A stretch of 64,000 bases of DNA, taken from assembly GCF_013167455.1 (NCBI RefSeq), contig NZ_CP038328.1; one strand, given 5' to 3'. Origin of the DNA: Escherichia coli O157:H7 (lineage in GTDB: Bacteria > Pseudomonadota > Gammaproteobacteria > Enterobacterales > Enterobacteriaceae). Position numbers: made by a program. Shown piece after piece: positions 51,601 to 54,600 of the stretch. Within the stretch, counting starts at the first letter, position 1, and each line of letters opens with the position of its first letter.

Positions 51601-54600
51601 TCGCGGTACGCCGCTGTATGTTCAGTTGCTGGTGTTCTATTCCGGCATGTATACGCTGGAGATTGTTAAGGGGACCGAGTTTCTTAACGCCTTTTTCCGC
51701 AGTGGCCTGAACTGTACCGTGCTGGCGCTGACGCTTAACACCTGCGCTTACACTACCGAGATTTTTGCTGGGGCAATCCGTTCGGTGCCGCATGGGGAAA
51801 TTGAAGCCGCCAGAGCCTATGGCTTCTCGACTTTTAAAATGTATCGCTGCATTATTTTGCCTTCTGCGCTGCGTATTGCGTTACCGGCATACAGCAACGA
51901 AGTGATCCTGATGCTGCACTCTACTGCGTTGGCATTTACTGCCACGGTGCCGGATCTGCTGAAAATAGCCCGCGATATTAACGCCGCCACGTATCAACCT
52001 TTTACCGCCTTCGGCATTGCCGCGGTGCTCTATTTAATCATCTCTTATGTCCTGATCAGCCTCTTTCGCAGAGCGGAAAAACGCTGGTTGCAGCATGTGA
52101 AACCTTCTTCAACGCACTGAGAATACGATGTCCGAGAATAAATTAAACGTTATCGATTTGCACAAACGCTATGGCGAACACGAAGTGCTGAAAGGGGTGT
52201 CACTGCAAGCGAATGCCGGAGATGTAATAAGCATCATCGGATCGTCGGGATCGGGGAAAAGTACCTTTCTGCGCTGCATTAACTTCCTCGAAAAACCGAG
52301 TGAAGGGTCGATCGTGGTCAATGGCCAGACGATCAATCTGGTGCGCGACAAAGACGGTCAACTCAAAGTCGCCGATAAAAATCAACTGCGCTTACTGCGC
52401 ACACGCCTGACGATGGTATTCCAGCACTTCAATCTCTGGAGCCATATGACGGTGCTGGAAAACGTCATGGAAGCGCCGATTCAGGTGTTGGGCCTGAGCA
52501 AGCAGGAAGCGCGCGAGCGGGCGGTGAAGTATCTGGCAAAAGTCGGGATAGACGAACGTGCGCAGGGGAAATACCCGGTGCACCTGTCCGGTGGTCAGCA
52601 ACAGCGTGTTTCCATAGCGCGGGCGCTGGCAATGGAACCGGAAGTTCTGTTGTTTGATGAACCGACATCGGCCCTTGACCCAGAGCTGGTGGGTGAAGTG
52701 CTGCGCATTATGCAGCAGCTGGCGGAAGAGGGAAAAACGATGGTGGTGGTGACCCACGAAATGGGCTTTGCTCGCCATGTATCTACTCACGTCATTTTCC
52801 TCCATCAGGGGAAAATAGAGGAAGAAGGCGCGCCGGAGCAGTTATTTGGCAACCCGCAAAGCCCTCGTCTGCAACAGTTCCTTAAAGGTTCGCTGAAATA
52901 ATTGCCTCTCCGGTGGCTAACGCTGCCGGAGTATTTTCAAGGGGAATTTGCGAGTCAGCTTCCGCTGAAATGTAAAAGTTGCAGTCCGCTAAAAATACTT
53001 CTGAATTCGCTGTCCAAAGATAAAAACTGCCTGCTGCATTGGGTGTTAATCGTGGTTATTGTCGCGTCATCTTAAATTTGAGGGGTGACGGAACGCCATG
53101 ACAATATCGACAACTTCCACGCCGCATGATGCGGTATTTAAATCTTTTTTACGCCATCCAGACACCGCGCGGGATTTTATTGATATTCATCTTCCCGCGC
53201 CGCTGCGCAAACTGTGTGATTTAACGACGCTTAAACTGGAACCAAACAGTTTTATTGATGAAGACCTGCGGCAATATTATTCCGACCTCTTGTGGTCTGT
53301 GAAAACGCAGGAGGGAGTGGGTTATCTTTATGTAGTGATAGAGCACCAAAGTAAGCCGGAAGAATTAATGGCTTTTCGCATGATGCGTTATTCCATTGCG
53401 GCAATGCAAAACCATCTTGATGTGGGCTATAAAGAGCTTCCATTGGTGATCCCGATGCTGTTTTATCATGGTTGCAGAAGTCCTTATCCTTATTCACTCT
53501 GCTGGCTTGATGAATTTGCCGAGCCTGCGATTGCCCGTAAAATATATTCATCGGCTTTTCCGTTGGTGGATATTACCGTGGTGCCGGATGACGAGATTAT
53601 GCAACATCGTAAAATGGCGCTGTTGGAGTTAATTCAGAAACATATTCGTCAGCGCGATCTGTTGGGATTAGTCGACCAAATTGTTTCGCTGCTAGTTACA
53701 GGGAACACTAATGACAGACAGCTAAAAGCCCTGTTTAATTATGTATTACAAACGGGAGATGCCCAGCGTTTCCGTGCATTTATTGGTGAGATAACAGAAC
53801 GCGCACCACAAGAAAAGGAGAAACTGATGACCATTGCTGACAGATTACGTGAAGAAGGCGCAATGCAGGGCAAACACGAAGAAGCTCTGCGTATTGCTCA
53901 GGAGATGCTGGAAAAAGGATTTGACCACGAAGTCATCCTGACGCTGACCCGACTTTCACCAGACGATCTTATCGCGCAAAGCCACTAACCCTGTAACACC
54001 GGGAGTTAACTGGCGGATGTTTGCAGTAAACCACATCAGCGAACGACATCCGCCAGCGCCTCTTCTAAATCGTACCAGCGAAACGCAAAACCCGCTTCTT
54101 CCAGCCGTTTAGGCAGCGCGCGTTGTCCACCTAATACCAGTACTGAAGATTCGCCCATTAACAGCCGAATGGCGGTTGCGGGGACGCGCAAAATAGCCGG
54201 GCGATGCAGCGCATGACCGAGCGCATGGGCAAATTGTTCATTGCGTATCGGGTAGGGCGAAACCATATTAAATGGCCCGCGCAGCTCGTTATCCAGCAGC
54301 CAGAGAATGCCGTTGACCATATCATCGATATGAATCCAGGCCAGATACTGCCGACCGGAACCAATCGGCCCGCCCAGGCCAAGACGAAACGGCGGCAGCA
54401 TTTTACCGAGAATACCGCCATCCGGTGCCAGCACTACGCCGGTACGCAGCAGGCACACTCGCGTTTTGTCACTTTGCGCCCGACAGGCAATTTCTTCCCA
54501 GCGGGCGCAGAGTTTATGGGTAAATTTGTTATGCGGCGGTTCCTCTTCGGTAACCACCACTTCACCTAAGTCGCCATAATAGCCCGTTGCCGAGCCGGAA

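Follow-up and report, generated by a model that had tools for sequence, protein, structure and literature searches.

rpnB between hisP and yfcH in Escherichia coli O157:H7: a probable nuclease toxin gene with its antitoxin nested in frame

What kind of gene carries both the name of a transposase and that of a recombination-promoting nuclease, and holds a second translation start within its own reading frame? The case considered here is rpnB (yfcI), in a 64,000-nucleotide stretch of the Escherichia coli O157:H7 contig NZ_CP038328.1 (assembly GCF_013167455.1), called the window below. The best explanation, and in our view a very likely one, is that this locus is a chromosomal rpnB working as a two-in-one toxin-antitoxin (TA) module. 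Both the gene and its biology have been described before, and what is added here to published work is modest. An open reading frame (ORF) scan of the window finds an intact, ATG-started frame of 296 codons. Its DNA is 100% identical to the gene that RefSeq names "rpnB: recombination-promoting nuclease RpnB" in many O157:H7-type chromosomes (Megablast, with 5,426 complete E. coli genomes as the target set), and 96.9% identical to K-12 rpnB (YfcI, b2305), whose neighbours are the same. The hisJ-hisQ-hisM-hisP genes (49849-52901, plus strand) precede it, and yfcH (54036-54929, minus strand) is convergent with it; in O157:H7-type chromosomes the order reads hisJ-hisQ-hisM-hisP-rpnB-(yfcH)-(folX). 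Synteny from hisP through rpnB to yfcH, together with near-identity to annotated rpnB, identifies the RpnB orthologue. The first-pass annotation of this DNA, which had put rpnB at these coordinates beside the his transporter operon, was thus right as to extent, identity and position.

53098..53988, plus strand: rpnB_L coding sequence, 296 amino acids plus stop; full-length PD-(D/E)xK nuclease toxin, from the ORF, PF04754 and the RefSeq name.

The first part of the answer lies in the N-terminal two thirds of the protein. A Pfam search matched PF04754 (Transposase_31) to residues 8-209, covering positions 1-202 of the 203 in the hidden Markov model (E=4.1e-90, 301 bits against a cut-off of 21). 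Among the NCBIfam models, the Rpn subfamily model TIGR01784 was passed (187 bits against 52), and the equivalog cut-offs were missed both for RpnA (463 against 583 bits) and for the ISNCY family transposase (457 against 583).

53119..53724, plus strand: Transposase_31 (YhgA-like) domain, residues 8-209.
53128-53130, plus strand: codon of D11, equivalent to an essential RpnA residue.
53284-53286, plus strand: codon of D63, likewise equivalent.
53341-53343, plus strand: codon of E82, likewise equivalent.
53347-53349, plus strand: codon of Q84, likewise equivalent.
53377-53379, plus strand: codon of R94, likewise equivalent.
53590-53592, plus strand: codon of D165, likewise equivalent.

Alignment with K-12 RpnA, whose reference sequence was taken from the feoC-bioH locus, puts these six residues at the same positions in both proteins. 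Their mutation altered RpnA phenotypes (PMC5350276), and all six are invariant in a 24-sequence homologue alignment. RpnB_L belongs to the PD-(D/E)xK superfamily, with its restriction-endonuclease-like alpha-beta-beta-beta-alpha-beta fold. The profile match and the conserved catalytic residues bear out the earlier assignment to PF04754 and to the PD-(D/E)xK nucleases.

The second part of the answer lies at the 3' end of the same frame, where the first-pass annotation overlooked the most informative feature of the locus, namely a nested gene, rpnB_S (53827-53988), and its hypervariability.

53815..53820, plus strand: internal Shine-Dalgarno sequence AAGGAG, codons K240/E241, 6 nt before the internal ATG.
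53827..53988, plus strand: rpnB_S, in-frame nested gene, Met244-His296, 53 amino acids plus stop; antitoxin/oligomerisation domain.

The rpn genes, rpnB included, have been described as gene-within-gene TA systems, in which the full-length nuclease, Rpn_L, is the toxin and a small C-terminal protein, Rpn_S, counteracts it (Zhong et al. 2023, PMC10400941). The window gene has the layout that this description implies: an in-frame internal start (ATG, codon 244), some 50 codons before the 3' end and served by a ribosome-binding site of its own, and an RpnA_S-like three-helix C-terminus with four-residue repeats 8-20 residues after the internal Met. K240, E241 and M244 do not vary among 24 homologues, and in rpnA, which has the same layout, mutating K240/E241/M244 abolished RpnA_S (PMC10400941). 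For K-12 rpnB, initiation peaks with Ribo-RET and Onc112 and an SPA-tagged RpnB_S protein have been reported, and both RpnB_L and RpnB_S were detected (PMC10400941). Growth and dinD-lacZ assays established the toxicity and neutralisation of the K-12 allele: RpnB_L* with its internal translation initiation site silenced inhibits growth more strongly, and SOS induction by RpnB_LS is blocked by RpnB_S, not by RpnA_S (PMC10400941). The published "RpnB_S D29" stop mutant is consistent with numbering from Met244 in the K-12 allele. The O157 allele of the window presumably acts as the K-12 pair does, though 8 of the 53 residues of the S domain differ.

A PDB sequence search points the same way. Its one credible match is 7TH0, the crystal structure of RpnA_S, which can be aligned with residues 244-295 (E=2e-3). 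Designer pentatricopeptide-repeat proteins headed the PDB matches (E down to 2e-16); these are an artefact, since each matching stretch has an i-Evalue of at least 26, only residues 255-285 are covered, and about ten weak repeated-helix matches are summed. The C-terminal 53 or 87 residues gave no significant match in the local Pfam copy; PF27070 (HTH_Rpn_C) is recorded for homologues in precomputed tables. A promoter consensus scan adds two sites within rpnB that may serve as candidate internal promoters of a short rpnB_S transcript; internal transcription start sites in all rpn genes have been reported from differential RNA sequencing (PMC10400941).

53516-53543 and 53588-53615, plus strand: two sigma-70-like sites within rpnB, 9 of 12 matches, from consensus only.

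How would such a locus work? Translation from the ATG at 53098 would give RpnB_L, a PD-(D/E)xK DNA endonuclease that, if unchecked, would cause DNA damage, SOS induction and growth inhibition. From the strong internal ribosome-binding site (AAGGAG at 53815, ATG at 53827), RpnB_S would be made in the same frame from the last 53 residues, and it would bind the identical C-terminal domain of RpnB_L and block it. The specificity of this partnership would be set by the C-terminal helices, including the number of four-residue repeats, which would explain why the C-terminus is hypervariable and recombines between strains; the nuclease core would meanwhile stay under purifying selection. Some trigger presumably frees the toxin, and alkaline pH has been suggested as the release condition for RpnA and RpnP2. 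By analogy with the plasmid paralogue RpnP2, RpnB may have an anti-phage role. A PADLOC 2.0 scan of RpnB_L and RpnB_S gave no match, its 2023 library being older than Rpn or lacking it.

The name of the gene suggests another function. The first-pass annotation held that Rpn proteins promote recA-independent recombination, and in its fuller form this makes rpnB a domesticated transposase-derived nuclease that promotes RecA-independent recombination and gene acquisition. In a conjugal assay, overexpressed RpnB did raise RecA-independent recombination 19-fold (PMC5350276), and the family is named accordingly, with RefSeq using that name. However, overexpression was needed and came with a 98.7% loss of viability, and deletion of rpnA-D left basal recombination unchanged (PMC5350276). 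No autonomous transposase of the PD-(D/E)xK fold is known, and RpnB has been characterised as a TA toxin (PMC10400941). A hypervariable nested antitoxin is also left unexplained by recombination housekeeping. The claimed function is therefore better taken as an overexpression phenotype, the simplest account being that DNA breaks stimulate recombination as a side effect, and we consider recombination quite unlikely to be what the gene is for.

Variation in rpnB is concentrated in the nested antitoxin region. Across six alleles, 7 of the 243 alignment columns before Met244 are variable, and 25 of the 53 after it, including a four-residue indel that begins 10 residues past the internal Met. The ratio of nonsynonymous to synonymous polymorphism (pN/pS, Nei-Gojobori) rises from 0.05-0.12 in codons 1-243 to 0.29-0.72 in codons 244-296. 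Probes of 162 nt extend this to the population: the RpnB_S-coding probe reaches at least 95% identity in 890 of 4,755 genomes (19%), most falling at 80-95%, and the nuclease-core probe does so in 4,734 of about 4,748 rpnB-bearing genomes (99.7%). Two modules stand out in the DNA alignment.

53857..53868, plus strand: four-residue repeat tract, one unit here (G-A-M-Q), from allele alignments.
53911..53946, plus strand: 36-nt variable block, type A here; 13 of 36 nt differ between types A and B.

The repeat tract is 12 nt long (G-A-M-Q) in the window, K-12 and APEC O1, and 24 nt long (GRND-GLIL) in Ec1115, UID, IAI39 and E. marmotae. Across genera it has 0-7 units; of 100 full-length homologues, 78 have a length of 0 mod 4. 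The window and APEC O1 have the 36-nt block in its type A form, whereas K-12, Ec1115 and E. marmotae have type B. Tract and block assort independently of each other. Against K-12, which has the same locus, length, internal Shine-Dalgarno/ATG at Met244 and one-unit repeat tract, the window protein carries four substitutions in residues 1-243 and eight in the 53 residues of RpnB_S, the majority of them in the type A block that it has in common with APEC O1. At the DNA level there are 16 differences in the 100 nt from 53898, and 0-6 per 100 nt elsewhere in rpnB. The window gene and that of APEC O1 encode almost the same C-terminus despite an N-terminal synonymous divergence of 0.10 between the two, which indicates recombination. 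This variation matches the published four-residue-repeat model and supplies numbers for RpnB. Elsewhere in E. coli, a 361-residue Rpn paralogue named "ISNCY family transposase" (P0030) has a tandemly duplicated C-terminal S domain, in keeping with the published account of an rpn gene fused to an rpnSs copy downstream of it.

Is such a gene a fixed part of the chromosome? The flanks are found in 5,425 of the 5,426 complete E. coli genomes and rpnB in 4,755. It also occupies the same site in E. marmotae, E. whittamii and two further Escherichia species. Another state is an empty site: 670 genomes (12%), among them an O25b:H4-ST131 strain and an O6:K2:H1 strain, have one identical empty junction with the same filler. 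Comparison with the empty-site strains AR_0104 and N64 sets the ends of the segment that is missing, as homology to both ends at 53007 and resumes at 54010. The segment comprises rpnB with 90 bp upstream and 21 bp downstream.

53008..54009, unstranded: lineage-specific segment of 1,002 bp, absent in the empty-site allele, which has the 27-nt filler ATCTATATTTATTCATCAGCGTTTCCG.
54010..54056, unstranded: 11-bp perfect hairpin (CTGGCGGATGT / ACATCCGCCAG), spanning the yfcH stop and forming the right limit of the segment.

The hairpin is also present in the empty allele. The filler (AR_0104, L002:2008-2034, and 669 other genomes) matches nothing in any fetched locus, and it extends the hairpin stem at the yfcH end from 11 to 13 bp. 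An ancestral empty site was considered and rejected, because every Escherichia representative whose locus reaches the spacer has rpnB there, and because the 75 nt left of the breakpoint occur in Escherichia only, the left flank of the empty allele being 100% identical to the rpnB+ allele of APEC O1 (B2). We infer that rpnB was lost through a single secondary deletion in one B2 sub-lineage, which includes ST131 and an O6:K2:H1 strain. The first-pass description of rpnB as a conserved core component is therefore overstated and holds only roughly: the gene sits at its usual site in most E. coli and in other Escherichia species, but the deletion allele, the copies split by ISVsa5 and the absence of rpnB from spacers outside Escherichia speak against a strict core gene.

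Several other rearrangements touch the locus. In E. coli 3985 (L007:766-3006) and also in WWCOL-256, the IS4-like element ISVsa5 splits rpnB at about codon 135, so genuine insertion sequences occasionally inactivate the gene. In IAI39 (L003:3098-5524, L096:15948-19810), the 3' end of rpnB is separated from yfcH by a 3-kb insert that carries a trans-sulfuration-family enzyme gene and nhaC; the junction of this insert falls within the last eight or so codons of rpnB and rewrites the C-terminus to ...SPEELLNQKQ. The contig of E. albertii NBRC 107761 (L020) ends within the last yfcH codons, where the variable spacer starts, which hints at a repeat or insertion sequence there.

Loss with no apparent cost from successful lineages, ST131 among them, disruption by an IS4-like element in some strains, and the many partial proteins in databases are what one would see if rpnB were a decaying, functionless chromosomal remnant. 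Decay, however, fits poorly with an ORF that is intact in 4,742 genomes, with strong purifying selection on the nuclease part (the low pN/pS of 0.05-0.12), or with essential residues and an internal start that are invariant. Nor does it fit with retention at the same site across Escherichia species and the detection of both proteins in K-12 (PMC10400941). We give this reading very little weight.

The patchy presence of rpnB among strains raises a further question, whether it is an active or recently active insertion sequence carrying an ISNCY-type transposase gene. The Pfam and NCBIfam names contain the word "transposase", and related genera carry different rpn genes at different loci. At the segment ends, however, the best local score for terminal inverted repeats between 53008 and 54009 is 9, against 8.3 +/- 1.5 in shuffles, 36% of which reach 9; no target-site duplication is found there, the longest word common to both junctions being 3 nt. 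Short imperfect inverted repeats do occur near rpnB, for example 52895-52913 with 54479-54497 (79% complementarity); they were set aside, being at chance level and falling within the hisP and yfcH coding sequences. In complete E. coli genomes, rpnB is present in one copy per genome, always chromosomal at hisP-yfcH and never on plasmids. One common junction with the same 27-nt filler in the 670 empty sites marks a deletion allele rather than excision footprints, and the ISNCY equivalog cut-off is missed, as given above. The gene thus resembles insertion sequences and ISNCY transposases in its database naming and patchy distribution, and differs from them in having no terminal inverted repeats, no target-site duplication, and neither multiple nor variable sites. 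An insertion sequence is an extremely improbable identity for it, and the first-pass warning against mistaking rpnB for one, together with its remark that no inverted repeats flank the gene, was well founded. The gene is not self-mobile, and very probably has stood downstream of hisP since before the Escherichia species diverged.

What, then, occupies this place in other genera? A scan based on YfcH gave 80 species loci, 74 of them informative, with the following spacer contents between hisP and yfcH.

rpnB only: 5 loci, all Escherichia.
GNAT acetyltransferase gene only: 50 loci.
GNAT gene and both PDC-M06 components (A: E=6e-19; B: E=7e-31): 14 loci.
GNAT gene and a 64%-identical Rpn: 1 locus, from a Citrobacter metagenome-assembled genome.
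Spacer under 100 nt: 4 loci, from Salmonella arizonae and diarizonae, Buttiauxella and Pluralibacter.

The GNAT gene encodes about 170 amino acids (PF13302, E=3e-28) and lies between yfcH and hisP at L021:3966-4481 and in 64 other species loci. Escherichia is without it, so rpnB takes the place of a different gene and not of an empty spacer. PDC-M06 is a PADLOC candidate defence system, here a two-gene module with no Pfam or NCBIfam match. In Klebsiella grimontii (L027:4109-4936) the module sits between the GNAT gene and yfcH, and in Yokenella regensburgei (L074:4669-5497) between the GNAT gene and hisP, which suggests independent insertions. In the Citrobacter genome HRGM_Genome_0066 (L042:4497-5459), an Rpn of 320 amino acids from a TTG start, 64% identical to RpnB, is encoded between the GNAT gene and hisP in the same direction as hisP, as in E. 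coli; this rpn gene seems to have been acquired independently at the same spot. Salmonella and Citrobacter proteins of 65-68% identity were examined as possible RpnB orthologues and rejected, their genes being at feoC-bioH (the rpnA locus) and phr-dtpD; rpnB at hisP-yfcH is therefore specific to Escherichia.

The spacer resembles a small hot spot for cargo, one at which defence-type genes seem to arrive repeatedly, and this context is a hint in favour of a defence role for RpnB. A bolder proposal joins two statements: that the spacer downstream of hisP is a recurrent defence/TA landing site in Enterobacteriaceae, and that RpnB_S alleles, as combinations of repeat number and A/B block, are mutually non-neutralising incompatibility types under phage-driven selection. 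We put it forward tentatively, thinking it rather doubtful as a whole. If true, chromosomal RpnB would be a real, strain-variable defence determinant, and its loss in ST131 would have phenotypic consequences.

Comparison with known systems helps to place the pair. The biochemical exemplar is E. coli RpnA (YhgA), which is 69% identical over residues 1-243 with the essential residues and the layout of the internal start conserved; its S product (7TH0) has a C-terminal three-helix domain that can be aligned to the window RpnB_S. RpnA differs in its locus (feoC-bioH), in an S domain that is 49% identical, and in having no four-residue unit where RpnB has one, and the RpnA and RpnB antitoxins do not cross-protect (PMC10400941). 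RpnP2, from a plasmid of ECOR13, belongs to the same family and by its published description has the same L/S gene-within-gene architecture (PMC10400941). Unlike RpnB it is plasmid-borne, with demonstrated anti-T-even activity, and it is the only Rpn shown to defend against phage. As in classical type II TA systems, a protein antitoxin, small, helical and resembling a helix-turn-helix domain, binds the protein toxin directly. There the antitoxin has a separate adjacent gene, whereas the RpnB antitoxin is an in-frame internal product of the toxin gene, so that toxin and antitoxin are forced to co-evolve. The main value of the analysis is in annotation accuracy: rpnB is best labelled as one ORF with two products, a nuclease toxin and the antitoxin nested in it, and neither as a transposase or insertion sequence nor as a strictly core gene. 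The population figures give a testable picture of an obligatorily co-evolving toxin/antitoxin pair diversifying on the chromosome; they extend the published Rpn model and leave the model itself unchanged.

The remaining features of the window concern expression and surroundings. A terminator-like hairpin right behind hisP may part rpnB from the his operon transcript, and the main ATG had no sigma-70-like site upstream of it in the promoter consensus scan.

52908..52941, plus strand: terminator-like hairpin and T-run, right behind the hisP stop, from a consensus scan alone.

An Rfam scan gave no match in or near rpnB. Farther upstream, at 45405-45657 on the plus strand, it found three tandem matches to RF02564, naRNA4, a nucleoid-associated RNA of the REP/BIME type, which score 72-83 bits against a gathering score of 59.5 and are spaced 91 nt from start to start.
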